Source: a virus (lineage: Duplodnaviria > Caudoviricetes). Taken from it: a stretch of 64,000 bases of DNA. Below are positions 14,116 to 60,823 of this stretch, one piece after another (position 1 is the stretch's first letter; every line of letters starts with the position of its first letter). The notes beneath the pieces were generated by a model. The model saw only the letters and a program-made list of their open reading frames with translations. It had not been told where the DNA came from and made no database searches. Location of the stretch: positions 54,645 through 118,644 of the IMG/VR virus record IMGVR_UViG_3300032321_000388; one strand, written 5' to 3'. Position numbers and translations under genes: made by a program.

Positions 14116-14678
14116 TGGCATTTAGTCCTTCATCAACGCAATTAAATACATTAAATGAACTTAAGAATTTAAGCCATTTAATATCATACACTGATACTAC
14201 TGGAAGCCTTGGAGCTACTGGATATTATGTAACATATCCAGTCACAATAACAACATCACAACCAAATGTTACAGTTATGGTTACTGGTAATACTATATCT
14301 GGTTATTATTCTGATTGTTTTGATAATGAAATCCATTATAGAACAGTTGATAATAACTTTGTTATGGTAACAAAATGGTCAGATATACTTATGGCTATAG
14401 CCGATGGAGTTTTATCTGAAGTTTATTACTATAAAGCTGATACTACAACACGAATAGTTTACAGTTATCTGGCAACTGCTGGAAATGGCGCAACGCAGAC
14501 TTATACTATTAATGTTGATAATGATTGGACATCTGGAAGAAATCAAGTTATAAAATTCACTAACTTGACTAAATATCAGCAAGAGATCCTGATGCTGTGG
14601 ATAAATAATAATAGCGATAAAGTTGCATGGGCTAATAACATATTAGACATAATAGACTGGGAAAACGACGTACTATGA
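14115..14678 (+). CDS. Hypothetical virion protein downstream of gp5
   Basis: 187-aa ORF translationally coupled to gp5. Confidence 0.6.
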   Translation: MAFSPSSTQLNTLNELKNLSHLISYTDTTGSLGATGYYVTYPVTITTSQPNVTVMVTGNTISGYYSDCFDNEIHYRTVDNNFVMVTKWSDILMAIADGVLSEVYYYKADTTTRIVYSYLATAGNGATQTYTINVDNDWTSGRNQVIKFTNLTKYQQEILMLWINNNSDKVAWANNILDIIDWENDVL

Positions 14679-14869
14679 CATTAATTATACCAAATACATT
14701 TGCCAATAGAACTGGCTCAGCTCCTCTACTAGATTTAGATGAGAATTTTACCTATTTAGTTAATAATATAAATGGAAATGCTGGTGCTTCTTCAATATTA
14801 GATGGAGGAAGTCCTACTACAACATATACCGCAGGCAGTCCAAATATTGACTGTGGTGGAGTAAGTTAA
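14675..14869 (+). CDS. Small fibre-associated protein
   Basis: PL..LDENF.YL docking motif and a C-terminal LDGG...IDCGG, coupled to the next fibre gene. Confidence 0.6.
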
Positions 14870-16728
14870 TGGCATTTATACAATTCCAATTCAGACGAGG
14901 AACAACTGCAGAATGGGGAGCTACTGGAGCTAATCCAATACTCGCCAATGGAGAAATGGGTATTGAAACAGATACTCATAAATTCAAAGTTGGTGATGGT
15001 ACTACTGCATGGAATAGTTTACCTTATGGTGGTATTCAAGGTTATCAAGGAGCTACTGGTTCTACTGGCCCACAAGGTTCTACAGGTGCTCAAGGTCCAA
15101 CTGGTGGAGCTTCTGGACCTCAAGGTTCTACTGGTTCGCAAGGTGCTTCTGGTTCTACTGGTTTAACTGGTGCCACTGGTGCCACTGGTGCTTCAGGTGC
15201 TCAAGGTGCTTCAGGTGCTACTGGCACTCAAGGTGCTTCAGGCGTAGGAGCTACTGGTTCTCAAGGTATAACTGGTGCTTCAGGTTCAACTGGTTTAACA
15301 GGTGCTACAGGAATTCAAGGTGCTTCAGGTTCAACTGGTTTAACAGGTGCTACAGGAATTCAAGGTGCTACAGGAATTCAAGGTGCTTCTGGTATTCAAG
15401 GGGCTTCTGGTATAGGTGCTACTGGTATTCAAGGTGCTTCAGGTTCAACTGGTTTAACAGGTGCTACAGGTATACAAGGGGCTTCAGGCGTAGGAGCTAC
15501 TGGTTCTCAAGGTATAACTGGTGCTTCAGGTTCAACTGGATTAACTGGTGCTACAGGCATACAAGGTGTATTAACTCCTTGGAATATAATTACTGGAAGT
15601 ACATCTGTTTCTTCTGGTCAACAAATCATTGCTAATACTAGTAGTGGATCATATACTTTAACATTACCAGGTTCTCCATCATTAGGCAATTCAGTTGTAA
15701 TTCAAGATGGAGCAAATTGGCAAACTAATAATTTAATTATTGCTCCAAATGGAAATTTAATAGAGAATCAGTCAGGTAATTTAATACTTGATGTTGCTGG
15801 AATATTAGTTTATCTAATTTATGATGGATCGCAATGGCAAGTTTCATCAACTGTAGGAGCAATTGGAGCAACTGGTCCTCAAGGTCCTACAGGTGGAGCG
15901 TCTGGACCTACTGGAGCAACAGGTCTTACAGGAGCTTCTGGATATGTAGGTCAAGATGGAGCTACTGGTCCTCAAGGTCCTACAGGTGGAGCCTCAGGTC
16001 CTCAAGGAGCTAGTGGAGCAACAGGTATCAATGGAGCATCAGGTCCACGTGGATTTACTGGTGCAACTGGAGAAACTGGTGCATCAGGAGTAGGAGCTAC
16101 AGGTATAACTGGAGCAAGTGGAATAACTGGCGCATCAGGTATAACTGGAGCATCAGGTTCTACAGGTATTAATGGAGCCTCAGGAATTAATGGCGCAACT
16201 GGTATTACAGGAGCATCAGGTATTAATGGAGCCTCAGGAATTAATGGAGCGACTGGCGCAACTGGTATTACAGGAGCATCAGGAGCAACCGGACCTGGAG
16301 CAAATCAAACATTAAATACAACATCAAGTGTACAACATGCTTCATTAGGTATTGGAACAACTCCAGGAGCTACAGGAGAAATTAGAGCTACTGCTGATAT
16401 CACTGCGTATTACTCATCAGACGAAAAACTAAAAGAGAACATTCAACAAATAGAAAATGCTCTTGGTTTAATTGAACAAATCAATGGGGTTAGATTTGAT
16501 TGGACTGAAGATTATATTAAATCACATGGTGGAGAAGACGGATATTTTGTCCGTAAACAAGATATAGGTGTTATTGCTCAAGAGATAGAAAAAGTTCTAC
16601 CAGAAATTGTAGCACAAAGACAAGATGGTAACAAAGCGGTTAAGTATGAAAAAATTGTGGCAGTATTAATTCAAGCAGTTAAAGAATTATCCGTTAAAGT
16701 TAAAGAATTGGAAAGCAAATGGCAATAA
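14869..16728 (+). CDS. Collagen-like tail fibre with Mtd-N-like N-terminus and S74 intramolecular chaperone
   Basis: [10 protein letters not shown]...[32 protein letters not shown] repeats, and [10 protein letters not shown]...[13 protein letters not shown]. Confidence 0.85.
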
Positions 16729-17918
16729 ATTTAAGTACATTATCTAGTGGAGCATTAGCTGGACCAATAGGAGCCACAGGAGTTCAAGGTCCACAAGGTA
16801 ATTTTGGTGGAGCTGCATTTGAATACTATTATGATAGTTCAAGTACTGCTGATTCAGATCCTGGATTAGGTAAGATTAAGTTTAACAACACTTCATTAAA
16901 TTCAGTAGCTTATCTATACATTAATGAAACTGATACTAATAGTTTAATTGCAACAAGTTTCTTAGAAACAATCGATGATTCAACATCAAATATTAAAGGT
17001 CATTTTTCTGTTGCTGAAAAATCTAATCCATTAGTTTATACATTATTTGCTATCATAGGTTCTCATACAAAGTCTGGAAGTTATTATAAAGTTCCAGTAG
17101 GATATCTGTCAGGTGATACAACATTAACAGATGAACTAGATGTTATTCTAACATTCCAAAGATCTGGTGATAAAGGAGATACTGGCGATTCAGGAGCTAC
17201 TGGTAATGCAGGAGCTACTGGTCCTCAAGGAGCTACTGGTAGTTTAACTCCATGGTCAATAATTACTGGAGCAACTGGAATAATCAACGGTAAGCAACTT
17301 ATTGTGGATACAACTTCTGGTCCGTTTTCAATATCATTACCAGCTTCTCCGTCATTAGGTGATACAATACTTCTACAAGATGGTAATAATTGGTATTTAA
17401 ATAATTTAACTGTATTACCAAATGGTTCTACAATTGAAGGTCAATCAGACTATTTAATATTAGACGTTACTAATACATTAGTCTACTTAATATATGACGG
17501 TAGTACTTGGCAAGTTATATCAACAGTTGGTCCAATGGGTGCAAGCGGTATACGAGGAGCAAGCGGAGCTACAGGAACTCAAGGAGCATCTGGTGTAGGT
17601 GAAACTGGAGCATCAGGTATTCAAGGTATACAAGGAGCAACTGGAGTTCAAGGAGCAACTGGAGTTCAAGGAGCAACTGGAGTTCAAGGAGCAAGTGGAA
17701 CTACTGGCGTTCAAGGTGTTCAGGGAGCTTCAGGCTCAACAGGATTAACTGGTGCTACTGGAGTTGGTATCATAAATGCATATTGGTCTGTAGTTGGAGC
17801 ATCAGGAGCGACAGGAGCTTTATACTTTGTATTTAATGGAACCAATATAGCTAAGTTAGATTCTGCAGGAAACTTTAGTGTTGTTGGTGACGTCATAGCT
17901 TACGAGACTATTACTTAA
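16719..17918 (+). CDS. Collagen-like fibre protein
   Basis: G-X-Y tracts. Shares globular modules with the ORFs at 14869, 49591 and 58745. Ends GDVIAY. Confidence 0.75.
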
Positions 17919-17920
17919 TC

Positions 17921-18976: not shown

Positions 18977-18985
18977 GAGATAATT

Positions 18986-19192
18986 ATGGCAAGAAAATGG
19001 GCAATACACAACCAAATTACAGGATTACAAGAAGAGCTAGATTCATTTGAAGCAATCAAAGCTCGTAGGTTAGAAGTTATAGAAGAATCTGGCCTATTTA
19101 ATATAACAGTTTTAGTACAAAACGAAGATGAGACATGGACACAAACATTGGCTGATGCTAATGGAGATCCAGTTCCTTCTCCAATAGAATAG
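18986..19192 (+). CDS. Hypothetical protein
   Basis: 68 aa, AGGAG RBS. Confidence 0.65.
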   Translation: MARKWAIHNQITGLQEELDSFEAIKARRLEVIEESGLFNITVLVQNEDETWTQTLADANGDPVPSPIE

Positions 19193-19682
19193 GATAAAAA
19201 TGCCGATTAATCTAAGTACATTATCAGGTAGTTCATTAGCTGGACAAATAGGAGCAACTGGTCCTCAAGGTCTGACTGGTGCTACAGGTGCTCAAGGAGC
19301 TAGTGGATCCACAGGTTTACAAGGCGCTTCAGGTGCATATACTGCAGTAAGAGTCAACTCTCAAACAAGTATTGCAACTTTAACTCCCAATGCTGGAACT
19401 TATGACTTCTATGACATCACTGCTCAAGCTGCATCTTTAGCTATAGCTAATGAATCTGGAACACCAACAAACGGCCAAAGATTGTTTATAAGAATAAAAG
19501 ATAATGGTACGGCACAAGCTATATCATTCTCAGGTGCTACTGGAGCTACTGGAACTTTTATGCCTATAAGTTTAACATTACCAACAACAACTACTGTTAA
19601 CAAATACCAATATATTGGTGCTATATGGAATAATAGTAGGTTTTCATGGGATGTAGTAGCTGCAAGTTCAGAATAGGATAAA
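19186..19682 (+). repeat. 13-bp direct repeat AGAATAGGATAAA (19186-19198 and 19670-19682) flanking ORF 19200
   Basis: Identical stop+RBS sequence on both sides of the gene. Confidence 0.65.
19200..19676 (+). CDS. Short collagen-like fibre protein
   Basis: N-terminus is paralogous to ORF 16719 (INLSTLS..LAG.IGATG). C-terminal GTPTNGQRL.IRIKDNGT...WDVVA domain is shared with ORF 58745. Confidence 0.75.
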   Translation: MPINLSTLSGSSLAGQIGATGPQGLTGATGAQGASGSTGLQGASGAYTAVRVNSQTSIATLTPNAGTYDFYDITAQAASLAIANESGTPTNGQRLFIRIKDNGTAQAISFSGATGATGTFMPISLTLPTTTTVNKYQYIGAIWNNSRFSWDVVAASSE

Positions 19683-20378: not shown

Positions 20379-22225
20379 TGGCTACAAATAAAAATATCAC
20401 AGTTGCAGAGTTGGATTTTGATGCAATTAAGTCTAATATAAAAACATTCTTGAAAGCACAGTCAACTTTTGCTGACTACGACTTTGAAGGTGCCGGTCTT
20501 TCCGTACTTTTAGACATCCTTGCATACAATACTCATTACAACGCCCTATATACCAATCTAGCTGTCAATGAGTCCTTTTTGGATTCTGCCAGCAAACGAT
20601 CAAGCGTCGTTTCAAGGGCTAAAGAAATTGGGTATGTTCCACATTCAGCAACAGGAGCTACAGCAACAGTTAATATTGTAGTGTCTGGAACTACATCATC
20701 TCCAGCTACTTTAACATTACCTGCTTATAGTTCATTCTCGACAACTATTGATGGATCAAATTATACATTTTATAATACAGAAGCTATTGTTACTTCATTG
20801 TCAGGATCCACATATACATTTACTGAAGTTCAAATTAAAGAAGGTACTCCATTAACATTCAAGTATACTTCTGCAGATGGAGTTCAATATATACTTCCAA
20901 ATTCAAATGTAGATTTATCTACTTTAAAAGTTAGAGTGCAGGATAATGCATCATCTTCAAACTTTGAGACTTTTGTTAATCAAGAAGATATTATTAATCT
21001 TGATGGAGCATCACAAGTTTACTTTATTAAAGAAATTGAAGGTCAACTCTATGAATTAGAGTTTGGTAATGATACTATTGGTAAAGCTCTTATGAGTGGT
21101 AATGTAGTTAATCTAACCTATATGATAACAAATAAGACTGAAGGTAATGGAGCTAGACTATTCACATATACTGGTTCTACTTTATTAGGTGGAGTAGTTG
21201 CAATAACTACTACAACTCCAGCAGTTGGCGGAGCTGATATTGAATCTATTGATTCAGTTCGTTATAATGCTCCAAGGTCCTATGCTTCACAGAATAGAGC
21301 AGTTACAGTAGAAGACTATAAGTCAATTATATTTAGATTATATCCAGAAGCTAAGACTGTTAATGCTTGGGGTGGAGAAGACAACATTCCTCCTTCATAT
21401 GGTAGAATTTATCTATCAATTCAACCATCATCAACAGCAATTTTAACTGATGGCCAAAAAGAATATATTATTCGTGAGATATTAAAACAAAAGAATGTGG
21501 TATCAATTACTCCTGTTATTGTAGATCCAGAGTATATCAATCTTGAGATTAATACTTCAGTATATTATAATCCTCGTTTAACAGTCAAAACTGAAACAGA
21601 ATTAAAAGATTTAGTCATTAATACAATTAAAGCTTATAATGTAGAAAACCTTGAATCATTTACTGGTATCTTTAGACATTCAAATCTATCTTCACAGATT
21701 GATGCAACAGAAGATTCTATTATCAGTAATATTACAACAGTTAAATTACATCGTGAAATTGATGTTCAATATAATGCAAATTCAACATATACAATTTATT
21801 TAGGCAATCCTATCTATGATTCAGGAGTTCCTGAAGAATCTATAAAGTCTACTGGTTTCTATATTGCTGGCAATGAAAATATTATGTATCTTGAAGACTT
21901 ACCTACTTATGGTACATTTGTAGGTGTACTAAGAATGTATTACTATGTGGGCGATATTAAAACATATTACAGAACATTTGGTACTATTGATTATGCTACT
22001 GGTACTATAACTATGCCAGAATTAGAGATTACTGGTATTGATCAGACAACATCAGATATATTTGAATTGATTATTAAACCTCAATCAAATGATGTTGTAT
22101 CTATTCGTAATCAATTAGTAAATATTCCTGATTCACAGATTAATGTTTCAGTTATCCTTGATAAAGTATCTGTTGGTGATCCTGCAGGCGGTGCTAATTA
22201 TCAATTCACATCAAGCAGGAACTAA
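20378..22225 (+). CDS. gp6: Baseplate wedge gp6
   Basis: ELDFDAIK..., DYDFEGAGLSVLLDILAYNTHYN, QNRAVTVEDY, WGGEDN.PP.YG. Confidence 0.95.
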   Translation: MATNKNITVAELDFDAIKSNIKTFLKAQSTFADYDFEGAGLSVLLDILAYNTHYNALYTNLAVNESFLDSASKRSSVVSRAKEIGYVPHSATGATATVNIVVSGTTSSPATLTLPAYSSFSTTIDGSNYTFYNTEAIVTSLSGSTYTFTEVQIKEGTPLTFKYTSADGVQYILPNSNVDLSTLKVRVQDNASSSNFETFVNQEDIINLDGASQVYFIKEIEGQLYELEFGNDTIGKALMSGNVVNLTYMITNKTEGNGARLFTYTGSTLLGGVVAITTTTPAVGGADIESIDSVRYNAPRSYASQNRAVTVEDYKSIIFRLYPEAKTVNAWGGEDNIPPSYGRIYLSIQPSSTAILTDGQKEYIIREILKQKNVVSITPVIVDPEYINLEINTSVYYNPRLTVKTETELKDLVINTIKAYNVENLESFTGIFRHSNLSSQIDATEDSIISNITTVKLHREIDVQYNANSTYTIYLGNPIYDSGVPEESIKSTGFYIAGNENIMYLEDLPTYGTFVGVLRMYYYVGDIKTYYRTFGTIDYATGTITMPELEITGIDQTTSDIFELIIKPQSNDVVSIRNQLVNIPDSQINVSVILDKVSVGDPAGGANYQFTSSRN

Positions 22226-23799
22226 TGACGATTAATTTAAAATCGATAGTTTCAAAACAGATTCCTGAATTTGCTAGGGAAGACTATCCATTATTTGTAG
22301 CCTTTATTGAGGCATACTATGAATATATGGATAAGAAGACATTTACAGTTGGAGCTTCAGGCCCAACTTATCTTGGCGGTAATCAGCAGAGAAACTTAGA
22401 AACTATAAGAGATATAGATCAGACTCTTGATGAATATATTCAATTTTTTAAAAATGAACTTGATGTATTTGGCGATAACTATGAATTTATTAATCAAAAG
22501 TTATTATTAAGAAAAGTTAAACAGTTATTTGTAGCTAAAGGTGTTGAATCATCATATAAGTTCTTATTCAAATTATTATATAATAAAGTAGCTGAGATCT
22601 CATATCCATGGGATTCAGTACTTAAAGCTTCAGATGGTAAATGGCAGCAAGAAATGTCAGTGTTTGTAGATGTTTCTGCTGGATCAACATCAGTCTTACC
22701 TGGAAATCGAGTATCAATTAAAGGTACTAATGTTTCAATTAAAGTTTTTATTGAACGTATTAAGTATATCAGAGGTAATATCTGGGAAGTTTTTATTAAT
22801 AAGAACTACTATGGTAATATTGAAGTTGGAAATACAATTGAGTATGAAGGATTAGTTGGAACAATTATTCCTACCACAGTATCATATACAGTAACTCAAC
22901 CAAGTACTGGATATAAGATTGGTGACTTAATTACAGGCACAACTGTTTCTAATGGTGTATCTATTACTCAACTTTTAAAAGTTACAAGAGTAGATGAAAA
23001 TGGTGGAATTGTTAACATAGTAACAGTCAGATATGGGTGTGGATATGATTCTGGTTTCTATTTACTTCAATCAAATGAACCTATTATTGCAACATCTACA
23101 TTAGCAATTACAAAGAATTCAACTCTTCAATATTCATTGCCTAATGATTCTATTGTAGAAAAATATGATGACTATGGTTATGTGATGGATCCTAATTATG
23201 TTGAGATAGCTCATGCTGATCCATCATATGTTGGTACTATTATTCAACAATTCTATGAGCAATCTATAAGTGGACAAGGAAATAACCCCGATTATCTATT
23301 AATTAGATTTGATATTGGAGCGGTTGCTAAATATCAAGGTCATTATAACTCCAATGATGGGTTCCTTGATGATGATATCTTTATCCAAGATAGTTATAGA
23401 TGGCAAAAATACTCATATCTAATTACAGTTGATGAGAAACTTGATAAGTACAAAGCTCTTATCAAATCTTATCTCCATCCAGCCGGTACTGCTCTTTTTG
23501 GTGAATATCAGATCCAAAATACTTATGAACCAGGAGTTACTGCATCTCTAGAATTAGATCAATGGAGAGGCAAAGCTACCTTTAGAACTATAAATAAAGC
23601 TATTAGTGGCAATGATTATGTATATCCATCTGATTTGGGTGGAAGAATTAGAATAGAACCATATGATGCAGAAGACTATATGATGCCAGAAGAATACTAC
23701 AACCCACCAATAACCTATACATTCTTTGGTGACGGTAGGAATAACTTAACAACAACGGTGACAGTAACTGACTCTTCACCAAATATTACAGGACCATAG
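22225..23799 (+). CDS. gp7: Baseplate wedge initiator, gp7-like
   Basis: QIPEFAREDYP.FVAFIEAYYEY, KG..SYKFLFKLLY, LKASDGKW, IQDSY.WQ.YSY, HPAGT..FG. Confidence 0.75.
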   Translation: MTINLKSIVSKQIPEFAREDYPLFVAFIEAYYEYMDKKTFTVGASGPTYLGGNQQRNLETIRDIDQTLDEYIQFFKNELDVFGDNYEFINQKLLLRKVKQLFVAKGVESSYKFLFKLLYNKVAEISYPWDSVLKASDGKWQQEMSVFVDVSAGSTSVLPGNRVSIKGTNVSIKVFIERIKYIRGNIWEVFINKNYYGNIEVGNTIEYEGLVGTIIPTTVSYTVTQPSTGYKIGDLITGTTVSNGVSITQLLKVTRVDENGGIVNIVTVRYGCGYDSGFYLLQSNEPIIATSTLAITKNSTLQYSLPNDSIVEKYDDYGYVMDPNYVEIAHADPSYVGTIIQQFYEQSISGQGNNPDYLLIRFDIGAVAKYQGHYNSNDGFLDDDIFIQDSYRWQKYSYLITVDEKLDKYKALIKSYLHPAGTALFGEYQIQNTYEPGVTASLELDQWRGKATFRTINKAISGNDYVYPSDLGGRIRIEPYDAEDYMMPEEYYNPPITYTFFGDGRNNLTTTVTVTDSSPNITGP

Positions 23800-24529: not shown

Positions 24530-27298
24530 ATGCCATCATCATATTCAATGTTTAAACAGAAGTTCAAAAAGACCATCGCGGATGCGGTGTATCAGGAAGT
24601 AACTTCTAAGACAGCTCGATACTATCATTGGTTTGGTAAAGAAAATACATGGCAAGATTTCTTAAGTCCATTTATTCCATCTGGCACTACTGATACTCCT
24701 GGAGCTCCTTCAGAAAATTTCCGTTATGAACTTCATGTTCGTCGAGACATTCTTACTGCCAAATTAATTAAACCTTCTGATGTATCATACGTTACTAGAA
24801 GAGTTGATTGGACTAATGGAACTGTTTTTGACATATATGATGATGCTTATGAAGCTACAAATGGATATGGCTATGGTCCAGCCTATTCTGGAGCAATTCG
24901 TTTAGAAGATGCAAACTTCTATGTACTTACAAATGAATATAATGTTTATAAATGTATAGATAATAATGATAATTCTCCATCTACGTATCAACCTACTGGT
25001 ACTACACCTGATGTATTTGAAACAACCGATGGTTATAAATGGAAATTTATGTATGGTATTCCTGTTTCATTAAGAAATAGATTCTTATCATCAACATATA
25101 TGCCAGTTTCAACATCTTTAAAAGCACAGTTCTATTCTTCAGGTTCTATTAATAATATTGCTATTGAGAATGGTGGAGGAGGATATAATCCAGGAACTAC
25201 CATAGCAGTTATTAGTGGTGATGGTTATAAAGAATTTAATCCATATTTAATTAGTTCTATCACAACTACAAATGGTGGTCAAGGATTTACTACAATTCCA
25301 GCAATTACAATTGAACCTCCTTTTTCAAGTGCGATTGCATGGTCATCTGCAGCAAATGTTCCTCTTGGAAGTTATGTTAGCTATTTAAATCCAGCCACAT
25401 TAAAAACAAATTTCTATTACGTTTTATCTGGTACTAAATTAGGTACTTCAGGTCCTATTCATACAACTGGAACTATTACAAATGGTGGCACTCAATTAAG
25501 ATATTCTGGAACTACAGCAACAGCAGAATGTGTATTATCAAGCGGTGCAGTTGGTACTGTATCTTTAATTGACGGCGGTTATGGTTATCAAGATGCACCA
25601 ACTGTTACAGCAGATTATCCTATTACAAAAGATGCTGATTGGGTTACATTAACAACAGCAGTATTAGGTGATATTCTTAAATATGATGGAAGATATTACG
25701 AAGTTACTTTAGCTGGAACTACAGGAGCTTCTGGTCCAACTCATACAACAGGCGAAGTTTTAAATGGTTCATCAAAATTAACATACTTAGGTAAAGATGC
25801 AGTATTAACTCCAGTTATTGTAAAAACTGAAGCAGAAATATCATTAGTTATTTCTCCTGGAATTGATAGCTTATATTCAGTATCTATAGGTTTGACCGGT
25901 TCTAAATACGTAGAAATTCCAACGGTAACAATTGATGCTCCAGGTTCTGGAATACAAGCTGAAGCAGAAGCTTCTATAGCGGGTGGTAAAGTAACTCTTA
26001 TTAGTGTTATTAATCCTGGAAATGGTTATATATCTGTCCCGTTAATAACAATAACAAATCCTAAAATTACTTTTAATGCTGCCACAGGTCTTAACGATGT
26101 AACAGAAGTTATTAGTTATACTGGGCATAGACTAGTTACCGGCGATGCCGTTGTATATAACAATGGAGGTGGAACATCTATTGGTGGTTTAACATCAACA
26201 AATACTTATTATGTTATTAAAGTAAATGATGATTCATTTAGACTTGCCACATCAGCAATAAATGCAACAAATGGAACATATATTAATCTAACAGATGGCA
26301 TTGGTTCAGCCCATACTTTAACACTTACATCTGGAAATGCTACTGCAACAGCAATTCTTGGTACTGGTGGTGAAATTGTAGGATATAGCATTGATGATGC
26401 TGGTATTGGATATACTAATGCAAATATTGAGATTGTTGATTCATCTGGATCTGGTTCAGGAGCAGTTTTAGTTCCTGACTTCTCAGTTGGTAATGTTGAT
26501 ACATTACAGGCAAACGTTGAGCTGCTTGCAGTTCCAGGTTCTATTGAACTTATTAAAGTAGTAGACGGTGGTACTGGATACGGAGGAGCAACTGCTACTA
26601 TTTTAGGAGATGGCATTGGAGCTACCGCTGATATTATTTGTTCGGGTGGTAAGGTAACTAAAGTAGTCATAACAAATCCAGGTTCTGGTTACACATGGAC
26701 AGATGTTCAGATTACAGGTAATACAGGTTCATCTGGAGCAGTTGTAAGAGCTATTATGTCTCCATTAGGAGGTCATGGTTCAAATGCTATTGATGAGCTA
26801 AATGCCAATTCAATTGTATTCTATACATCTATATCACGAGATAAGAATCAAGGCATTGAAATTAACAATGACTATCGTAAGGTAGGTCTTGTTCGTAACT
26901 TTAAACAGTTTGGTTCTAATAGAAGATTTACAGATGACATTGGATCTGGTTGTGTACTTATTACTGGTACTTTTGATCCAACAAAAATTCAATATGATAT
27001 GTTATTATTAAAAGATGGATATAAGAAGTATCGTGTTGTTGACTTTACAGATACTCAGATCTTATTATCAGTATTCAATAACTTTTCTGTTTCTATTGGT
27101 GATACATTAGTTACAGATCCTACAGATGCTGGATTAATTACAGCCCCATCCGTAATTGCACAGAATATTATTGTAACAAGTGTATCAGAACGAACTATCG
27201 ATCAATTCTCAGGCGACTTCTTGTTCTTCTCAGTAAGAGAACCATATTCTCCTACAGCAGAGCAAATTATTACCGTAAGAACTGTCCTAACAATATAA
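24530..27298 (+). CDS. gp8: Baseplate wedge gp8, expanded with inserted modules
   Basis: DVSYV.RR.DW, FYVLTNEYNVYKCIDNN, DGYKWKFMY, GGHGSNAIDEL, DYRKVGL. Confidence 0.85.
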   Translation: MPSSYSMFKQKFKKTIADAVYQEVTSKTARYYHWFGKENTWQDFLSPFIPSGTTDTPGAPSENFRYELHVRRDILTAKLIKPSDVSYVTRRVDWTNGTVFDIYDDAYEATNGYGYGPAYSGAIRLEDANFYVLTNEYNVYKCIDNNDNSPSTYQPTGTTPDVFETTDGYKWKFMYGIPVSLRNRFLSSTYMPVSTSLKAQFYSSGSINNIAIENGGGGYNPGTTIAVISGDGYKEFNPYLISSITTTNGGQGFTTIPAITIEPPFSSAIAWSSAANVPLGSYVSYLNPATLKTNFYYVLSGTKLGTSGPIHTTGTITNGGTQLRYSGTTATAECVLSSGAVGTVSLIDGGYGYQDAPTVTADYPITKDADWVTLTTAVLGDILKYDGRYYEVTLAGTTGASGPTHTTGEVLNGSSKLTYLGKDAVLTPVIVKTEAEISLVISPGIDSLYSVSIGLTGSKYVEIPTVTIDAPGSGIQAEAEASIAGGKVTLISVINPGNGYISVPLITITNPKITFNAATGLNDVTEVISYTGHRLVTGDAVVYNNGGGTSIGGLTSTNTYYVIKVNDDSFRLATSAINATNGTYINLTDGIGSAHTLTLTSGNATATAILGTGGEIVGYSIDDAGIGYTNANIEIVDSSGSGSGAVLVPDFSVGNVDTLQANVELLAVPGSIELIKVVDGGTGYGGATATILGDGIGATADIICSGGKVTKVVITNPGSGYTWTDVQITGNTGSSGAVVRAIMSPLGGHGSNAIDELNANSIVFYTSISRDKNQGIEINNDYRKVGLVRNFKQFGSNRRFTDDIGSGCVLITGTFDPTKIQYDMLLLKDGYKKYRVVDFTDTQILLSVFNNFSVSIGDTLVTDPTDAGLITAPSVIAQNIIVTSVSERTIDQFSGDFLFFSVREPYSPTAEQIITVRTVLTI

Positions 27299-32527: not shown

Positions 32528-32734
32528 ATGAAGATTAAAGTAGAAAATGAATCATTGGTAAGAGATACAGGAACTAATGCTATCTTAGAGACTGATGTAA
32601 ATAAATTGCAGAAATCTAGAGCTATTAGACAAGCATTAAAAGAAAAAGAAAACAAATTAGATTATTTGATTGATAAAATAAATAAACTAGAAACAATTAT
32701 CGACGGGATGACAAATGGCAAGCTTAACACTTAG
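32528..32734 (+). CDS. Small conserved coiled-coil virion protein
   Basis: KVE..SLVRD..TNAI...D motif. Start ATG at 32528. Confidence 0.65.
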   Translation: MKIKVENESLVRDTGTNAILETDVNKLQKSRAIRQALKEKENKLDYLIDKINKLETIIDGMTNGKLNT

Positions 32735-48600: not shown

Positions 48601-49101
48601 ACTGGTATCATAGGTGCTTCAGGTTCTGATGGTGCTTCAGGCGTAACTGGTCAAAATGGTGCACAAGGTATTGGTGGTGCTTCAGGTACTCAAGGTGCTT
48701 CAGGTATTACAGGACAAACCGGAACTCAAGGTATTGGTGGTGCTAGTGGTACTACTGGTAACCAAGGTGCGACTGGTATTACTGGTGCTACAGGTGTACT
48801 AGGTGCTACAGGCTTCAGTTTACATACAGGTGCTACAAGTTTTACTGGTACTTCACAACAAACAATGGAATTATTTGCATCTAACCAATACGGTACTACT
48901 AAATACTTGATCCAAGGTATAGATGCTGACGATAATGTACAAGTTACTCAAGTCATACTAACACATAATGCAACTGGTGTATACATAACAGAATACGCTA
49001 CACTCAATTTATCTGGTGCAGAATATGGTGACTTCATGACATTATTTGGTACAGAAGATTTAGAAACATCAACTGGTTCTCCAGAAGATTTAAGCCTATA
49101 A
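45634..49101 (+). CDS. Long collagen-like fibre protein; C-terminal domain continues in the next ORF
   Basis: KFNVKNGL, collagen tracts, and YGTTKYLIQ...VYITEYATL. Confidence 0.8.
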   Translation: MATNDIKFNVKNGLAVGASGIQVINPQAEWVGTAQSPYGATGSAGVTGGAGIAGASGITGASGVAGATGSQGINGANGVQGATGVLGSTGADGASGITGASGAQGYQGATGLLGSTGADGASGVQGSTGADGIQGASGTVGLIGDTGLEGDQGITGADGFQGSTGAQGFQGSTGAQGINGASGADGVQGSTGAQGIDGASGVTGSSGPTGQDGATGASISALVIGIGYEWTSGQLVWNGNAFAGGVSPSVARLEFLQTDPVYSYLNSLSSGTQIIIDWPSSGLSNIGTVTTIGTVQAPTAYTSGRHYLQVSGNPDGFASGGYASTDSTPGDILVIGEGLQNQGSRGTQGATGQTGATGPHGDNYHSSSISPFTLSAEGATGSVTLTNTSMEYSVGQKIVLAYDINNLQYGSVISYNAGTGVLVFSKDEAVGSGMYSSWEVNLDGSIGPIGASGVTGQGGATGSTGAQGTQGASGLLGSTGANGAQGIDGASGAAGSTGADGASGITGTTGAQGIDGASGADGVQGATGVLGSTGADGASGITGTTGAQGIVGASGTVGLIGDTGLEGDQGTTGLDGVQGSTGAQGINGASGAQGINGASGADGVQGSTGAQGFQGINGEQGFQGASGSTGLTGSTGAQGTDGSGYTIYETDAYHDGDWDNIEWTGSTLTGDGSARISFNNAQPIYNRLSSLSLGDLFTIKFFGSGGTIAQTVSVTETFSLDGTYNTHKIKVSAEPNNNASTQLISTNFGDILEFVTYAGPTNTGIQGSSGAQGATGSVGNAGIDGATGFAGASGASGITGSSGPTGVDGATGSIGTNAATGPTGVGGATGIIGTNAATGPTGVNGQQGINGASGVNGASGVIGNTGTDGATGYHGIQLKANASGSYSITGVGTTQTAVSFLADAESGNTFYNYSVGQTIIMAKDFNNYMVGDITATDGTYIDFTVTKSVGSASSVSGWIVNLDGAVGWIGASGATGLNGATGILGASGATGIIGASGSDGASGVTGQNGAQGIGGASGTQGASGITGQTGTQGIGGASGTTGNQGATGITGATGVLGATGFSLHTGATSFTGTSQQTMELFASNQYGTTKYLIQGIDADDNVQVTQVILTHNATGVYITEYATLNLSGAEYGDFMTLFGTEDLETSTGSPEDLSL

Positions 49102-49590: not shown

Positions 49591-52134
49591 ATGGCAAAGA
49601 CGCTGCAATTTAGAAGAGACTCAACTGCAAACCTAGCATCAGTTACAGGTGCTGTAGGTGAGATTTTTATCGACACAACTAAGAAGACCGTCGTTGTCAT
49701 GGACGGCTCGACACCTGGTGGTTTTCCACTAGAAAAACAAGGTGCTGGCACTGGAGCAACTGGTGCGGCTGGAGCAAACGGAGCAACAGGTTCTGCTGGT
49801 ACTAATGGAGCTACTGGTTCTGCTGGATCAAATGGTACTAATGGAGCTACTGGTTCTGCCGGAACAAATGGTACTGACGGTGCTACTGGTTCTGCAGGTA
49901 TTAACGGTGCTTCAGGTGCTACTGGATCAAATGGTACAAATGGTGCGACAGGTTCTGCCGGTGCAACTGGTTCAGCAGGTACAAACGGTGCTACAGGAGT
50001 TACTGGTGCTTCAGGTGTTTCAGGCTCAAATGGTACTAATGGTGCTACCGGTACTGCAGGTTCTACTGGGGCTCAAGGTATCCAAGGAGCTTCTGGTTCA
50101 ACAGGTTTAACAGGTGCTACTGGTACTCAAGGTATTACAGGTGCTACTGGTTATACAGGTTCTACTGGCGTTAAAGGCGAACAAGGTAACTTTGGTGGTG
50201 CAGCATTTGATTACTTGTATGATAGTACAAGTACTGCTGACTCAGATCCAGGTACTGGTTACTTTAAATTTAATTCTGCAACTTTAAGTTCTGTTGCTTA
50301 TCTATACATCAATGAAACAGATTATTTAGCTAATGTAGCAACATCATTCTTAGAAACAATTGATGATTCTACATCAAGTATCAAAGGTCACTTCTCAATG
50401 GCGAAGAAGACTGATGATACAAAATACACATTATTTGCTATCACTGGTGCTCATACTAAAACTGGAAGTTATTATAAAGTTCCAGTAAGTTATCTATCAG
50501 GTGATACAACGCATACTGATGAAGAAGAAAATATCCTTACATTCCAACGTACTGGTGATAAAGGCGATACAGGTTTAACTGGCGCTACAGGTATCCAAGG
50601 TGCTTCAGGTTCTACAGGTTTAACAGGTGCTACTGGTACACAAGGTATTACAGGTTCTTCTGGTATCCAAGGTGCTTCTGGTTCTACAGGATTAACAGGT
50701 GCTACTGGTACACAAGGTATTACAGGTGCTAGCGGTGTTCAAGGCGCTTCAGGTATTGCAGGCACAAATGGTACAAATGGAGCAACAGGTGCTACAGGTA
50801 TTCAAGGTGCTTCAGGTGTAGGTTCTACTGGTCCTCAAGGTATTACAGGCGCTAGTGGTGCTACAGGTACTCAAGGTGCTTCAGGCGTAGGTGCTACTGG
50901 TGTTGCAGGTACAAATGGTGCAACTGGTTCTACTGGACCTCAAGGCGCTTCAGGCGTAGGTGCTACGGGTTTACAAGGTGCTTCAGGTGTAACTGGTGCT
51001 TCTGGTACAGGTAGTTCTCTTGGTGCTACATCATTTATTTCAATAGCTGGTGAAAGTATTGGCGGTGGTGCAACAGGTGCTACAGGTACTGGTGTAGCTG
51101 CTCGTGCTTATATGTCTCCATCATTTAATGCATATACTGGATCTATAATTGAACCGTTTACTCTTGGTGCTTCTGGTTCTATGACAGCTACAGTTTATAT
51201 TAAATCTGGTTCAGGTGCTACAGGATTCGTAGGATCTACTGGTTCATTAGCAGCTCAAGACGGTTTCTTTAATTCTCTTAGAGTTTCTGGTAATACAGTT
51301 GCTACAGCTCTTACTTCTGCATCATCAGTTCAAGTTGCTACACTTCAAGCTGGTTCTGGCGCTACAGGTGCTACAGGTACAATAGTTGCTGGTAGAGCTC
51401 ATCTAGCTCCAACAATATTAGCATACACAGGTTCTCCAATTGAACCATTTACTCTTGGTGCTACTGGTTCTATTAATGCTAATACATACTTCTTTGGTGG
51501 TATGATAAGTGTTGGTGCTACTGGTTGGGTTGATGGTGCTTCTGGTACTGTCAGAGCTACTGGTTCAATTTCTACAACAAGTTCTAGCTCAACAGCATTT
51601 TCAGCATCATCTGGCGGAGTATCTGCAAATACTTTAAGTGCTTCAACAGTTGCTACCGCTTCTACATTAATTGTTGGTTCTGGCGCTACAGGTGCTACAG
51701 GTACAATATCTGCTGGTCGTGGTATATTGGCTCCAGCAATCTTGGCTTATACGGGTTCTCCAATCGAACCATTTGCACTAGGTGCTTCTGGTACTATCAG
51801 AGCTCAAGGTGATATTACAGCTTACTACACTTCAGACAGAACATTAAAAGAGAATATCAATGATATTCCTAATGCTCTAGATAAAGTTGTTGCAATCGGT
51901 GGTAAAACATTTGATTGGACTGATGAACATATTGCTAATGCAGGTGGAGCAGATGGTTACTTTGTAAATAAAGCCGACTTTGGTGTTATTGCTCAGGACG
52001 TACAAGAAGTATTCCCAGTAGCAGTTCGTTTAAGAGACAATGGTAAACTTGCAGTTGACTATGACAAATTAGTAGCTTTAGCATTTGCTGCTATTAAAGA
52101 GTTAAAAGCTCAACTAGATTTTCTTAAGAAATAA
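49591..52134 (+). CDS. Collagen-like tail fibre with S74 chaperone
   Basis: LQFRR...TGAVGEIFIDTTKKTVVVMDGSTPGGFPL, G-X-Y tracts, and TSDRTLKENI...GVIAQDVQ. Confidence 0.85.
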   Translation: MAKTLQFRRDSTANLASVTGAVGEIFIDTTKKTVVVMDGSTPGGFPLEKQGAGTGATGAAGANGATGSAGTNGATGSAGSNGTNGATGSAGTNGTDGATGSAGINGASGATGSNGTNGATGSAGATGSAGTNGATGVTGASGVSGSNGTNGATGTAGSTGAQGIQGASGSTGLTGATGTQGITGATGYTGSTGVKGEQGNFGGAAFDYLYDSTSTADSDPGTGYFKFNSATLSSVAYLYINETDYLANVATSFLETIDDSTSSIKGHFSMAKKTDDTKYTLFAITGAHTKTGSYYKVPVSYLSGDTTHTDEEENILTFQRTGDKGDTGLTGATGIQGASGSTGLTGATGTQGITGSSGIQGASGSTGLTGATGTQGITGASGVQGASGIAGTNGTNGATGATGIQGASGVGSTGPQGITGASGATGTQGASGVGATGVAGTNGATGSTGPQGASGVGATGLQGASGVTGASGTGSSLGATSFISIAGESIGGGATGATGTGVAARAYMSPSFNAYTGSIIEPFTLGASGSMTATVYIKSGSGATGFVGSTGSLAAQDGFFNSLRVSGNTVATALTSASSVQVATLQAGSGATGATGTIVAGRAHLAPTILAYTGSPIEPFTLGATGSINANTYFFGGMISVGATGWVDGASGTVRATGSISTTSSSSTAFSASSGGVSANTLSASTVATASTLIVGSGATGATGTISAGRGILAPAILAYTGSPIEPFALGASGTIRAQGDITAYYTSDRTLKENINDIPNALDKVVAIGGKTFDWTDEHIANAGGADGYFVNKADFGVIAQDVQEVFPVAVRLRDNGKLAVDYDKLVALAFAAIKELKAQLDFLKK

Positions 52135-54275: not shown

Positions 54276-54839
54276 ATGTCAAGAGTGAATCATAATGCGC
54301 AGTATATCTACGATGTAGAAGGTGAGACTATTTGGGAAAAATTAAGAGTTATAAGAAATCAATTAGAACAAAGACAATTAGCTTTAGATCTATCACTTCT
54401 TAATAAAGAAAAAGCAGAAGCTAAGTTTAAAGACGATAAAGAATCATATGAGTATCGTGAATTTATAATACATTCTAAACAAAGAGAACAATTAATTCAA
54501 GATTGTATTAATGAAATAGAATTCTTAAAAGAGTTTGAATCTTATCTAGCATTAGAAGCAGAAAAGACAAGAATTCCTGGTAAGACTGATGATGAGATGT
54601 ATGAGCTTAATTTCTTTGAAGAATTAAAAGTTAGACTAGTAAGAAGAGCTCAGACACAAATTATTTCTTCTGGAAGAGTAGACCAAGAAACATTATCTAG
54701 AATATTAAAGATGCCTGATGCTTTACAATTGTGTATAACATCAGGATTATTAACTAATGATGTATTAAATTTTACTAATATTCCTCAATTACCTAATAAT
54801 GATATTACGATAAATTATTTGGAGAAGAAAGATGATTAA
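54276..54839 (+). CDS. Hypothetical helical protein
   Basis: 187 aa, AAGGA RBS. Confidence 0.7.
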   Translation: MSRVNHNAQYIYDVEGETIWEKLRVIRNQLEQRQLALDLSLLNKEKAEAKFKDDKESYEYREFIIHSKQREQLIQDCINEIEFLKEFESYLALEAEKTRIPGKTDDEMYELNFFEELKVRLVRRAQTQIISSGRVDQETLSRILKMPDALQLCITSGLLTNDVLNFTNIPQLPNNDITINYLEKKDD

Positions 54840-55110
54840 TTGGCTATATATTCTTAACGGAATAGTGGTAGAAATAGTTCAAATGGAACCAGGAATTACT
54901 CCAAATACTGTACAATTTGGTGGAACTTTTGATACTTTAACTGCAGATCATTCACAAACTTTTAAAATAGGTGATGCTTTTACAGATGAGCTTCAATTAC
55001 AATATAACCATGAAATATGGACTTCTATGGCATGGCTCACGGCACCAGTAACTGGAGCAAGCGGTGCTGCAGAATATTGTAATTTAATGCCACACTTGTA
55101 TATAATATAA
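54832..55110 (+). CDS. Hypothetical protein (possible fibre assembly helper)
   Basis: 92 aa with an NGIVVEIV motif, overlapping the upstream stop. Confidence 0.55.
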   Translation: MINWLYILNGIVVEIVQMEPGITPNTVQFGGTFDTLTADHSQTFKIGDAFTDELQLQYNHEIWTSMAWLTAPVTGASGAAEYCNLMPHLYII

Positions 55111-56480: not shown

Positions 56481-56493
56481 CTAGGGATAAAAA

Positions 56494-57066: not shown

Positions 57067-57090
57067 TAAAATTTTAATAGGAGAATATAA

Positions 57091-57459
57091 ATGAGTGCAT
57101 GCGAATGTTGTATTTCGCCCGGTGAGGGTGGTAGCGGTGGAGCTGGGTATGGAGCTGGCGGAGATCCAGGTTCAGCTGGCGACTTTGACTGCGGTGTTGG
57201 ATATCAGGGTGTATCGGCAAATCCTGGAACACTAACGGCTGGTGGAGCTGCTATAAACAAATATGGTGTCGCCTCAGGTGCTCCTTTTAATGGTGCTGGT
57301 GGAGCTCTTGGATCTGCCGGTGATGTCGTTCGGTACCAAGGTAATCCTTATAATGTGGGAAATGAAGGTACTCCTGGGTCTGGTGGAGCGGCTATAGCAG
57401 GTAATTCATATATTACATGGGTTGCAACTGGAACAAGATCAGGGGCAATTAACTCATAA
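57091..57459 (+). CDS. gp38-like glycine-rich adhesin, C-terminal part
   Basis: Same frame as ORF 56494, with its own AGGAG RBS. Ends GG.AI.GNSYITWVATGTRSGAIN, matching the end of ORF 17921. Confidence 0.7.
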   Translation: MSACECCISPGEGGSGGAGYGAGGDPGSAGDFDCGVGYQGVSANPGTLTAGGAAINKYGVASGAPFNGAGGALGSAGDVVRYQGNPYNVGNEGTPGSGGAAIAGNSYITWVATGTRSGAINS

Positions 57460-57479
57460 TAAACACTTGAGATTAAATT

Positions 57480-58744: not shown

Positions 58745-60109
58745 TTGGCAACAACAAATAGTAAATTTGTAGCAAAAAACGGCTTAGCGGTCGGCTCATC
58801 AATAGATGTAATCAATACAGACGGTCAATGGATAGGTGCTACTGGCACTTTACATGGAGCCACAGGACCAGCAGGTGCTACAGGTGCACAAGGTATCGGT
58901 GGAGCAACTGGTCCTCAGGGTGTTCAAGGTATTCAAGGCGTTGAAGGAGCATCTGGTGTTAATGGAGCTACTGGTGTAACCGGTGCTAGTGGAGTAGGTC
59001 TTACTGGAGCAACAGGTATTCAAGGAGCTTCAGGAGCTACAGGTACACAAGGAGCATCTGGCCTTCAAGGTTCATTCGGCGGAGCTGCATTCGATTATAC
59101 CTACATGGGTGCGACAGGAGTTGCATCTAATCCAGGTACAGGTAAAATCACATTAAACAATGCAACCATCTCATCAGCTACTGAGATGTATATCAATGAT
59201 GCTGACGATCTTTCAGTTTCAATATACAACTACTTACAGACCATCGATGATTCTACATCTGCAATCAAAGGTCACTTCTCAATAACAGAAAAAACAGATA
59301 CTGCAAACTTTGCTTTATTTGCTATCACTGGTTCCCATACACACGGTAGTAGTTACTTTACTGTTCCTATCAGTTACCTATCCGGTGGAGGTACTCTATC
59401 AACTAATGATGACGTGATTATCACTTTCGCAAGAACAGGTGATAAAGGAGATACTGGTAACACTGGTGCCACTGGAGTTCAAGGAGCAACTGGGGTTCAA
59501 GGAGCTTCAGGTGTAGGAGCTACTGGTGTTCAGGGAGCTTCTGGTGTTGCAGGTATAAATGGTACAACTGGTCCTCAGGGTACACAAGGTGTCCAAGGTA
59601 TTCAAGGTGCATCTGGTGCTACTGGAACTGCAGGTACTAATGGTGCCACAGGTACTGCTGGTACTAATGGAGCTACAGGCGAAAGCGGAGCTACTGGAGC
59701 TACTGGTCCTGTAGGAAGTAACGGTATCAATGGTGCGACCGGTCCTCAAGGTGTAACTGGAACTACAGGACCAATAGCTGGATCTAGAACTGGAGCTACT
59801 GGTGGTGCAATATCATCAATCACACCAGATGCATCATTATATGACACCTATGTAGTAAATGCTTTAGGAGCATCAGGTACAATCAATACTCCTTCTGGCA
59901 GTCCTGTTGACGGTCAAAGACTAGTTATTCGTATTGAAGATAATGGTACAATCAGAGGTTTAGCATTTGCTGGTGCTACTGGAGCATATCGTGCTTTAGG
60001 TACTACTTTACCTACAGCTACTACTGCTGCAAAAGTTACGTATGTTGGATGTGTATACAATTCATATGATTCATTTTGGGATGTCGTTGCTGTGGCAACG
60101 CAGGCATAG
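58745..60109 (+). CDS. Collagen-like fibre protein (TTG start)
   Basis: KFVAKNGL N-terminus, FGGAAFDY...TIDDSTS.IKGHF module, and a GQRL.IRI.DNGT...WDVVA C-terminal domain. Confidence 0.8.
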   Translation: MATTNSKFVAKNGLAVGSSIDVINTDGQWIGATGTLHGATGPAGATGAQGIGGATGPQGVQGIQGVEGASGVNGATGVTGASGVGLTGATGIQGASGATGTQGASGLQGSFGGAAFDYTYMGATGVASNPGTGKITLNNATISSATEMYINDADDLSVSIYNYLQTIDDSTSAIKGHFSITEKTDTANFALFAITGSHTHGSSYFTVPISYLSGGGTLSTNDDVIITFARTGDKGDTGNTGATGVQGATGVQGASGVGATGVQGASGVAGINGTTGPQGTQGVQGIQGASGATGTAGTNGATGTAGTNGATGESGATGATGPVGSNGINGATGPQGVTGTTGPIAGSRTGATGGAISSITPDASLYDTYVVNALGASGTINTPSGSPVDGQRLVIRIEDNGTIRGLAFAGATGAYRALGTTLPTATTAAKVTYVGCVYNSYDSFWDVVAVATQA

Positions 60110-60336
60110 AGGAATATCATGAAAAGTGCGGTCGTTAATAAAGAAACAACTGTAGTTGAAAACATTATTATGGCAAGTCCTAGTGATCCATGGCCATTCT
60201 CAAGCACATCGTTAGTTTTAGTACCTGATGATTTATTAGTTAATATAGGTGATACCTATATTGATCCTTATTTTTATGATAAGGACGGTAATATTGTCAC
60301 TCCTATACAATTAGAAACACCTTAGGCATAGAGGAA
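60102..60336 (+). repeat. 13-bp direct repeat AGGCATAGAGGAA (60102-60114 and 60324-60336) flanking ORF 60119
   Basis: The last codons, stop and RBS of the upstream gene recur after the next gene. Confidence 0.65.
60119..60325 (+). CDS. Small putative fibre assembly/chaperone protein
   Basis: A.V.....VVENII.A...V.IGDTY...F pattern. Confidence 0.6.
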   Translation: MKSAVVNKETTVVENIIMASPSDPWPFSSTSLVLVPDDLLVNIGDTYIDPYFYDKDGNIVTPIQLETP

Positions 60337-60340
60337 ATAT

Positions 60341-60823
60341 ATGGCGGTCAAGACTTTAGTAATAATTAATCCAACAGGAGCTACAGGCGGTGCAACTGGA
60401 ACATATATTGGTGTTCCTAATGATTTTGTTTCATTGATATCAATTGAAGCTATAGCCGGAGGCGGTGGTGGAGGATATAATGGAGTCATAGGCGGAGGCC
60501 GTGGTGGGGGTGGTGGTGCATATGTCAAATCTACTGGTGCCACAGGATTGGTACCAGGGGCTTCTATGTTCTATTATGTTGGTTATGGTGGTAATGGTGG
60601 TGGTTCTACTGGTGCTGCTACTAACGGAGGTCCTACTTGGCTTACTATAGGTACAAATAGTCCCCCATCTTTTTCTTATCAAGGTATATTTGCTCCCGGA
60701 GGTATAGCTGCTCAAACGGGTTCAACAGGTGCCACTGGTGGATTTGGTGGCGGTACAGTAGGTACTACCGGTGCAACAGGATGGACGGGTTCAACAGGAT
60801 ACAGAGGCGGTAAAGGTGGATAA
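60341..60823 (+). CDS. Glycine-rich domain protein, N-terminal part of a split domain
   Basis: VP.D....IEAIAGGGGG...GGGGGAY...VG.GG; ends YRGGKGG*. Confidence 0.7.
   Translation: MAVKTLVIINPTGATGGATGTYIGVPNDFVSLISIEAIAGGGGGGYNGVIGGGRGGGGGAYVKSTGATGLVPGASMFYYVGYGGNGGGSTGAATNGGPTWLTIGTNSPPSFSYQGIFAPGGIAAQTGSTGATGGFGGGTVGTTGATGWTGSTGYRGGKGG

Follow-up and report, generated by a model that had tools for sequence, protein, structure and literature searches.

The window analysed here is the final 64 kb (64,000 nucleotides, nt) of a 118.6-kb IMG/VR contig (IMGVR_UViG_3300032321_000388), a linear sequence that represents about 74% of the genome of a T4-like myovirus and terminates within a hypervariable host recognition cluster, or fibre island. 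Baseplate genes for gp5, gp6, gp7 and gp8, a tail-tube cap gene and a gene for a VrlC-like protein of 1732 amino acids (aa) come first in the window and are followed by the fibre island, a gene order that matches the pelagimyophage layout, in which the hypervariable host recognition cluster is found after VrlC (PMC7029224). Replication genes, a curli CsgG/curlin pair, a CHASE2 cyclase and a DNA-modification-like operon lie 5' of the window. The element in question is the tetrapeptide Gly-Ala-(Thr/Ser)-Gly (GA[TS]G), which an earlier note on this DNA had reported both in collagen-like tracts and as isolated copies in the non-collagen loops of many virion proteins, proposing it as a sequon for a Thr/Ser modification that coats the virion surface. 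The analysis bears out that observation, but over a narrower range of proteins than the heading of the note gave it.

Collagen-like G-X-Y repeats, with a tract defined as at least four consecutive triplets, account for 867 tract triplets in 13 open reading frames (ORFs), in runs of up to 105 triplets, and homologues carry the precomputed family PF01391. Position Y of the tracts is Thr in 306 and Ser in 154 of the 867 triplets, with GAT and GAS units making up 18% and 16%, respectively. The window holds 351 copies of GA[TS]G, all in frame and on the plus strand, of which 303 lie inside tracts and 48 are isolated; no off-frame or minus-strand copy was found in the window, where chance would give only about one. 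The isolated sites fall into 39 clusters, nine of which are multi-unit. Shuffling of residues within each protein gave an expectation of 3.9 ± 1.9 isolated sites (at most 10 in 500 shuffles), and under a stricter mask, in which three triplets already count as a tract, 27 isolated sites remained against 2.7 expected. Furthermore, a dipeptide-preserving shuffle of the whole genome gave 11.2 ± 3.0 against 53 observed. Both shuffle tests rule out a bias of composition or of dipeptides. The features of the window that bear on the motif are as follows.

14115..14678, plus strand: tract-free ORF of 187 aa (phrog_1168); isolated GATG at nt 14211-14222.
14869..16728, plus strand: collagen-like fibre of 619 aa with nine tracts; isolated GATG at nt 14917 and 16366.
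16719..17918, plus strand: collagen-like fibre of 399 aa; GATG at nt 17268 and GASGATG at nt 17796-17816.
19200..19676, plus strand: protein of 158 aa, a collagen stalk joined to a beta-sandwich at the C-terminus; nt 19533-19553 encode GATGATG, whose two 9-nt units (GCTACTGGA) are identical.
22225..23799, plus strand: gp7-like baseplate wedge protein; GASG at nt 22351-22362.
24530..27298, plus strand: gp8-like baseplate wedge protein; GASG at nt 25724-25735.
32715..33908, plus strand: tract-free tail fibre of 397 aa; GATGATG at nt 32739-32759 and GATG at nt 32946-32957.
41408..42724, plus strand: collagen-like fibre of 438 aa with 59 tract triplets; no isolated site.
42802..45597, plus strand: collagen-like fibre of 931 aa; 206 triplets in tracts and 10 hits of the isolated motif, at nt 42856, 43576, 43696-43716, 43747-43767, 44779, 44896-44916 and 44956.
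45634..49101, plus strand: collagen-like fibre of 1155 aa; isolated sites at nt 45682 and 46765.
49591..52134, plus strand: collagen-like fibre of 847 aa; 11 isolated hits at nt 51067-51792, in three repeats of about 100 aa.
54832..55110, plus strand: ORF of 92 aa with no family match; GASG at nt 55054-55065.
58745..60109, plus strand: collagen-like fibre of 454 aa; isolated sites at nt 58835, 59108, 59792, 59867 and 59972.
60341..60823, plus strand: Gly-rich protein of 160 aa; GATGGATG at nt 60377-60400 and GATG at nt 60536.
60823..63999, plus strand: ORF that runs off the end of the contig, open at its 3' side and at least 1059 aa long; three isolated sites, at nt 61084, 62764 and 63073.

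The excess depends on the order and identity of the residues. Permuted controls were flat, with 34 GATG against four GTAG and no excess of G[TS]AG. Expressed as observed over expected counts outside tracts, GA[TS]G reached 20.6 in this genome (G000), 27.6 in the syntenic, 99% complete relative G017 and 9.7 in the clade loci, whereas the classes G[ISVTLPY][TS]G, GA[QNDA]G and G[ISVTLP][QND]G stayed at 0-1.9 times the composition expectation in all three datasets. As the corresponding triplet classes (G[ISVTLPY][TS], GA[QNDA] and G[ISVTLP][QND]) together make up about half of the tract units and only GA[TS]G is enriched, a spill-over in proportion to tract abundance is rejected for most classes (p from 1e-2 to 1e-10), the deciding result between spill-over and a specific motif. 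The need for Ala at X together with a hydroxyl residue at Y favours a cause at the protein level. Moreover, the 48 isolated sites are written in 32 distinct 12-mers, and these diverse codons, with the lack of off-frame and minus-strand copies, rule out a DNA motif in place of a peptide. The examples quoted in the earlier note were all found at the positions given, with its paralogue comparisons correct, and its expectation of an excess over shuffled background and of a protein-level signal behind the varying codons held up; gene conversion from near-identical tract DNA, which it had named as one of the ways in which its idea could fail, finds exact matches of only 12-21 nt between isolated sites and tract DNA.

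The isolated sites are concentrated in the fibres. Forty-one of the 48 (85%) belong to the 13 proteins that have tracts and fall outside those tracts, in a total of 4281 aa where 2.3 would be expected, and the window ORFs without tracts hold seven against 1.3 expected. In the upstream 54 kb, five sites were found against 0.7 expected, four of them in a single head protein (phrog_613). Non-virion proteins contain a single site in about 17,000 aa, and the fast-evolving small ORFs among them are also at background. Turns of the form G-[AST]-[AST]-G show the A-T/A-S order in 85% of cases in tract-bearing proteins (p = 1e-21), compared with 8 of 24 (33%, p = 0.13) in tract-free proteins when the head protein is left out and 10 of 50 (20%, p = 0.52) in the tract-free proteins of the clade when locus L013 is left out. 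A few proteins account for the excess in the tract-free set. The window proteins gp5, gp6 and the VrlC-like protein have no isolated site, and in G017 there is none in the terminase or in the major head, portal, sheath and neck proteins. This distribution indicates that the motif marks the fibres and a few peripheral proteins rather than the whole virion surface. Thus, the spread over many virion proteins claimed earlier stands for the 13 tract-bearing fibre proteins and was overstated beyond them, and the claim that the motif coats the virion fails on the abundant capsid and tail proteins of G017 and on gp5, gp6 and the VrlC-like protein of the window. The reported lack of the motif in replication proteins and enzymes was borne out, and the upstream 54 kb has only one site besides the four in the head protein.

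The phrog_613 head protein (310 aa; L001:17142-18074 in genome coordinates) is encoded about 37 kb upstream of the window and is free of tracts. Its four GA[TS]G sites are kept in 71-89% of 109 homologues, compared with a mean of 45% for all its 4-mers. Homologues from cyanophages such as Syn9 gp188 align with residues 125-288 only, and all four sites lie within clade-specific insertions or the N-terminal extension relative to Syn9 gp188. The C-terminal part of the protein looks Ig-like by eye. A complete 168-kb genome (G001) with a 42%-identical head protein was also considered; it has no doubled motif and was set aside as an outgroup. The head protein sites are unlinked to the fibre genes and tract-free, yet conserved, suggesting that they are maintained in trans.

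Relatives were gathered with gp6 as bait, those of 62-82% identity being taken as close. The close relatives with GAT/GAS tracts also have isolated sites, with 42 in tract-bearing ORFs against 5.8 expected, and in the distant relatives tracts and excess are both missing (15 sites against 11.1 expected). In G017, tract-bearing ORFs hold 28 sites against 1.3 expected and tract-free ORFs 10 against 2.6. No GA[TS] tract, motif excess or enzyme of the kind discussed below was found in G019 (87% complete). Locus L014 has frequent isolated GSTG where GST tracts are frequent. Orthologues differ widely in their number of sites, indicating that sites turn over fast, with the head protein as the exception.

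Several isolated sites lie in segments that vary in length. Those in gp7, ORF 14115, ORF 32715 and the head protein are in lineage-specific insertions: the gp7 site in a 15-aa insertion present only in the closest relatives (L004, L006 and L013; L008 has the insertion without the motif), and the ORF 14115 site in a stretch of 8 aa that the L012 orthologue lacks. In ORF 19200, the site is where a beta-hairpin of variable length turns. Among the 120 homologues of its family, most have N, G or TTSSG at this turn, and GATG occurs there in 4 of 17 tract-bearing and 0 of 103 tract-free members. The C-terminal domain of ORF 58745 is a paralogue of this domain and carries GATG in the same hairpin. An AlphaFold2 model of the ORF 19200 domain, a beta-sandwich that weakly resembles tailspike and baseplate attachment domains (E about 3e-3), has a predicted local distance difference test score (pLDDT) of about 95, with loop residues 111-120 at 67. 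A fold was also predicted for the five-site gp7 of L013, but its mean pLDDT of 54 made it unusable, and its sites were merely noted to lie in unstructured segments. The loop location asserted by the earlier note is supported by the insertions and the variable hairpin, while the single modelled site is a low-confidence loop on a confident domain in a model of the monomer only.

At other positions, relatives show different residues. The gp8 position reads GTTG, SATA, STTA, GTSG or GGTG in orthologues, and small-residue states of this turn include GATG, GSSG, GSTG, GASG, GAAG and GNDG, indicating a drifting small-residue turn rather than a motif-specific site. ORF 42802 carries its sites in a module of about 85 aa that is repeated within the protein; ORF 45634 has diverged copies of the module, with AGTG, GSGM and GVGTT at the equivalent turns. 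The site of ORF 16719 at nt 17268 is ITGATGI here and ITGATQL in relatives. The 3'-open ORF 60823 has homologues of 40-59% identity in small, apparently complete and otherwise unrelated phage genomes of 33-55 kb, which points to a probable mobile module of the adhesin or fibre kind.

We propose, with a probability of about 40%, that GA[TS]G is a putative fibre-restricted acceptor or recognition unit, most likely for O-glycosylation of Thr/Ser. It would be a protein-level unit common to the collagen-like tracts and to the exposed, length-variable loops of the same fibres, carried as well by a few other peripheral proteins including the head accessory protein. A trans-acting factor that reads G-A-(Thr/Ser)-G would favour the same tetrapeptide in both settings. 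The candidate modification is O-glycosylation of the Thr/Ser hydroxyl by glycosyltransferases (GTs) linked to the fibre genes, and its proposed targets are the fibres rather than the whole virion. For this phage the enzyme would be encoded in the missing 26% of the genome or supplied by the host.

The putative link to glycosylation draws on the relatives. In G017, two genes on the same strand as the last collagen fibre come directly after it, one for a GT2+HtrL_YibB fusion of 533 aa (L202:6317-7915, minus strand) and one for a GT1 enzyme of 388 aa (L202:3863-5026, minus strand); this last fibre is a protein of 1342 aa with 16 isolated sites. In the window, ORF 49591 is the last large fibre gene ahead of the point at which relatives carry this cassette. 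A GT beside a fibre gene is present in G017, G018, G020, G023 and G024. The GT2+HtrL_YibB fusion occurs in 5-6 of 10 fibre-type records and in none of 17 other T4-like records (four of them complete), a comparison confounded by lineage. Collagen rich in GA[TS] lies within 10 kb in 18 of the 48 loci with a homologue of the enzyme, some of these homologues being 60-65% identical, compared with 0 of 52 distant loci gathered with the gp6 bait. A GT2 search also covered 15 small clade fragments and records that share ORF 60823, but the fragments are too short and the phages of those records too unrelated to inform the comparison.

Several results weigh against the proposed acceptor or recognition unit. 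The 118.6 kb of this genome contain no GT1, GT2, GT8 or HtrL domain, and no glycosyltransferase domain turned up in its Pfam-scanned ORFs, so that the enzyme which the earlier note had thought might be encoded elsewhere in the genome did not come to light; the motif excess here is as strong as in GT-positive G017. Synteny with G017 holds through the fibres, after which a different cassette replaces the GT cassette. Several close homologues of the enzyme lack GA[TS] fibres within 5-10 kb upstream, and the isolated motif tracks the tracts and not the enzyme, enzyme loci without tracts showing no isolated motif. HtrL/YibB-type and other glycosyltransferases of host recognition clusters have been read as modifiers of host lipopolysaccharide (PMC7029224). 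Nor are the sites better kept than other turns: where flanks are at least 75% identical, the motif core is retained in 36% of cases, compared with 55% for other G-x-x-G turns, and the VrlC-like protein has no site here, two in G017 and 7-9 in L013 and L017. The regional codon signature described below belongs on this side as well. The modification sequon of the earlier note is partly supported, by the order specificity, the loop setting and the GT cassette of relatives; the missing GT here and sites that are no better conserved than others count against it.

Some candidates for a glycosylation pathway in this genome were examined and rejected. ORF 53129 (53129-54262), tried as a hidden glycosyltransferase, is instead predicted to be a Kelch/RCC1-like beta-propeller. 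The upstream sugar genes, which encode epimerase/dehydratase, inositol-1-phosphate synthase-like and cytidylyltransferase-like proteins beside a gene like that of 5-hydroxymethyldeoxyuridine DNA kinase, include no glycosyltransferase, and they more likely serve DNA modification.

That G-A-(T/S)-G is a true four-residue sequon, O-glycosylated by phage GTs (the GT2-HtrL and GT1 enzymes of relatives, or an enzyme from the missing part), with gain and loss of loop sequons tuning the glycan load of the fibres, is a tentative and rather doubtful proposition.

It is unlikely, in our estimate, that the isolated sites are functionless products of mutation, offshoots of one or two units of the GAT/GAS repeat DNA that would arise as short templated patches or by ectopic conversion from tracts close by, grow by 9-nt slippage and be tolerated in loops. 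Such an origin would explain why 85% of the sites are in tract-bearing proteins, why the motif occurs only in genomes with such tracts, and why isolated GSTG in L014 parallels GST tracts, and fast turnover without extra conservation would be expected of it. Multi-unit clusters (9 of 39) fit slippage, three doubles being perfect 9-nt tandem repeats, two of them GATGATG doubles of ORF 49591. Gains in blocks are seen as well. Relative to its paralogue at 39251-40084 (53% identity), ORF 32715 has a 21-nt insertion that encodes GATGATG and a clustered replacement of 18 nt, 11 of them changed, which now reads G-A-T-G-A-S; a change of TDPSDPTK to AGASGA and a 6-aa insertion are further cases. T4-type phages recombine intensely.

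After removal of paralogous sites, the synonymous codons of isolated units match the tract-unit table of their own region, with a log-likelihood ratio (LLR) of 27.6 compared with 0 ± 6.4, while tables of general usage give only 4.1; GGA abounds in region A (14-27 kb) and GGT in region B (41-52 kb). This regional signature gives a hint that some of the sites, at least, originated at the DNA level. However, it did not replicate in G017 (LLR -10), where isolated sites follow the general codon usage of the genome, and in region A it is partly a context effect of Gly before Ala. Across the GA[TS] units, GGA makes up 46-83% of Gly codons in window positions 14000-27400 and GGT 80-90% in 41400-52200, which suggests separate origins or separate homogenisation of the two fibre clusters.

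Other results also speak against an origin in repeat DNA. The remaining tract units, about half of the total, are not enriched outside tracts. No near-identical donor for the ORF 32715 patches was found in the window, the best differing by 2-3 mismatches, and with exact matches of 12-21 nt, recent gene-conversion patches were dismissed. Frayed tract ends were dismissed as well, as the sites neither lie near tract boundaries nor cluster there (median distance 29 aa, compared with 36 aa under the null). Four stable sites are found in the unlinked, tract-free head protein, and non-virion ORFs remain at background, including the fast-evolving small ones.

A structural habit is a distinctly improbable explanation. 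Under it, G-A-T/S-G would be a favoured tight beta-turn in trimeric beta-modules, with small residues packing near the threefold axis and nothing reading the motif. The flanks of the sites have a beta-strand-like appearance and the one modelled site is a hairpin turn; Thr is favoured over Ser more strongly in loops than in tracts, as expected beside beta-strands; conserved baseplate proteins have ancestral G-[AST]-[AST]-G turns; and at site 184 of ORF 16719, G-A-T is a conserved feature of the domain. Such a habit gives no account of why the favoured turn should be the dominant collagen unit and appear only in genomes with GA[TS] tracts, nor of the extreme order specificity (34 GATG, four GTAG). 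The ORF 19200 hairpin never reads GATG in the 103 tract-free homologues, where N, G or TTSSG is found, and the head protein is not a collagen fibre.

Chance production of the tetrapeptide by Gly/Ala/Thr/Ser-rich virion proteins is very improbable in general and rejected for the fibre proteins: the single site of gp8 is individually compatible with it, those of gp7, ORF 14115 and ORF 54832 are individually indistinguishable from it, and the tract-free proteins minus two outliers lack a significant order bias, but the counts (48 against 3.9 ± 1.9 and 53 against 11.2 ± 3.0), the flat permuted G[TS]AG and the replication of the excess in G017 and the clade loci contradict it.

The proposed acceptor or recognition unit has partial parallels in known systems. 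BclA of Bacillus anthracis and BclA3 of Clostridioides difficile, the latter with SgtA, are collagen-like glycoproteins of the spore surface with associated glycosyltransferases. Both sides have Pro-poor G-x-Thr repeats on a surface fibre, and GT genes adjoin the fibre gene in G017 and other phage relatives. The phage system differs in being a tail fibre with G-A-T/S instead of G-P-T units, in the single copies of the motif in non-collagen loops, in the lack of a GT in 118.6 kb and in the linked enzyme of relatives, a GT2+HtrL_YibB fusion. Phage-encoded glycosyltransferases reportedly O-glycosylate mycobacteriophage virions (work of Freeman et al., 2023, in Cell Host Microbe), a precedent for phage enzymes that act on Ser/Thr of virion proteins and have their genes near structural genes; the acceptors there are the capsid and tail tube extensions, whereas the major capsid protein and sheath of G017 are motif-free and the putative targets are fibres with a defined tetrapeptide. 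The autotransporter heptosyltransferases TibC, acting on TibA, and Aah, acting on AIDA-I, O-glycosylate Ser/Thr at turns in the cytoplasm. Ser/Thr at turns of repetitive beta-structured surface proteins are common to both cases, but the enzyme family and the repeat differ, and no heptosyltransferase was found here.

Gly-rich motifs of T-even gp38 adhesins are said to have been proposed as recombination linkers, by Tetart et al. in 1998. Those motifs too are short, conserved, Gly-containing and delimit variable fibre or adhesin segments, but they act through DNA homology. Linker motifs of that kind were rejected for the present sites, as their codons are too heterogeneous (32 12-mers for 48 sites) and they lie away from mosaic junctions. 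Collagen-like Gly-X-Y tail-fibre candidates have been described in T4-like cyanophages (PMC1079782), and pelagimyophages and cyanomyophages share with this phage a hypervariable island after the VrlC-like gene with fibres, collagen repeats and radical SAM cassettes, curli genes upstream, and glycosyltransferases in the island of relatives (PMC7029224). Neither PMC7029224 nor PMC1079782 describes the isolated tetrapeptide, and in the literature on T4-like marine phages we found collagen-like fibres described but no description of the isolated motif.

Some neighbouring genes are recorded here in their own right. At 52244-58682 of the window, in the cassette that takes the place of the GT genes, lie a 2-oxoglutarate (2OG) oxygenase, the predicted Kelch/RCC1-like beta-propeller and two ATP-grasp-like paralogues, one on either side of a split gp38-like adhesin; G017 has no homologue of any of these cassette genes. 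The G017 GT cassette is itself followed by two RCC1-repeat beta-propeller proteins (L202:668-3717), and RCC1-repeat proteins account for the frequent GQLG tetrapeptide in GT loci. Candidate protein-modifying enzymes (radical SAM, 2OG-Fe(II) oxygenase and Asp/Asn beta-hydroxylase-like) are encoded at 33924-39219 of the window, between two fibre paralogues, and among them only the radical SAM gene has a G017 homologue; a second Asp/Asn beta-hydroxylase-like cupin is encoded further upstream (L001:6633-7217). Upstream of the window there are also a sulfotransferase-like ORF between the genes of both ribonucleotide reductase subunits (L002:12298-12921), and the curli CsgG and curlin-repeat gene pair and the CHASE2-adenylate/guanylate cyclase (L003:1799-3403 and L003:6611-8620), the curli genes being in keeping with pelagimyophage gene content (PMC7029224).

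If GA[TS]G is an acceptor site, abundant uncultured T4-like aquatic phages would coat their receptor-binding fibres with sugar at a predictable tetrapeptide, with effects on host recognition, fibre stability and protease resistance, and glycosylation could be predicted from metagenomes. A small testable pair would then be the 158-aa fibre protein of ORF 19200 and the two enzymes of the relative. Should it prove to be the four-residue sequon considered above, no acceptor sequon would have been defined before it for the glycosylation of phage virion proteins. If instead it is a by-product of repeat DNA, the motif would record the seeding and spread of collagen-like tracts within fibre genes. Either way, a lineage-specific excess of this tetrapeptide is real at the protein level without being virion-wide.

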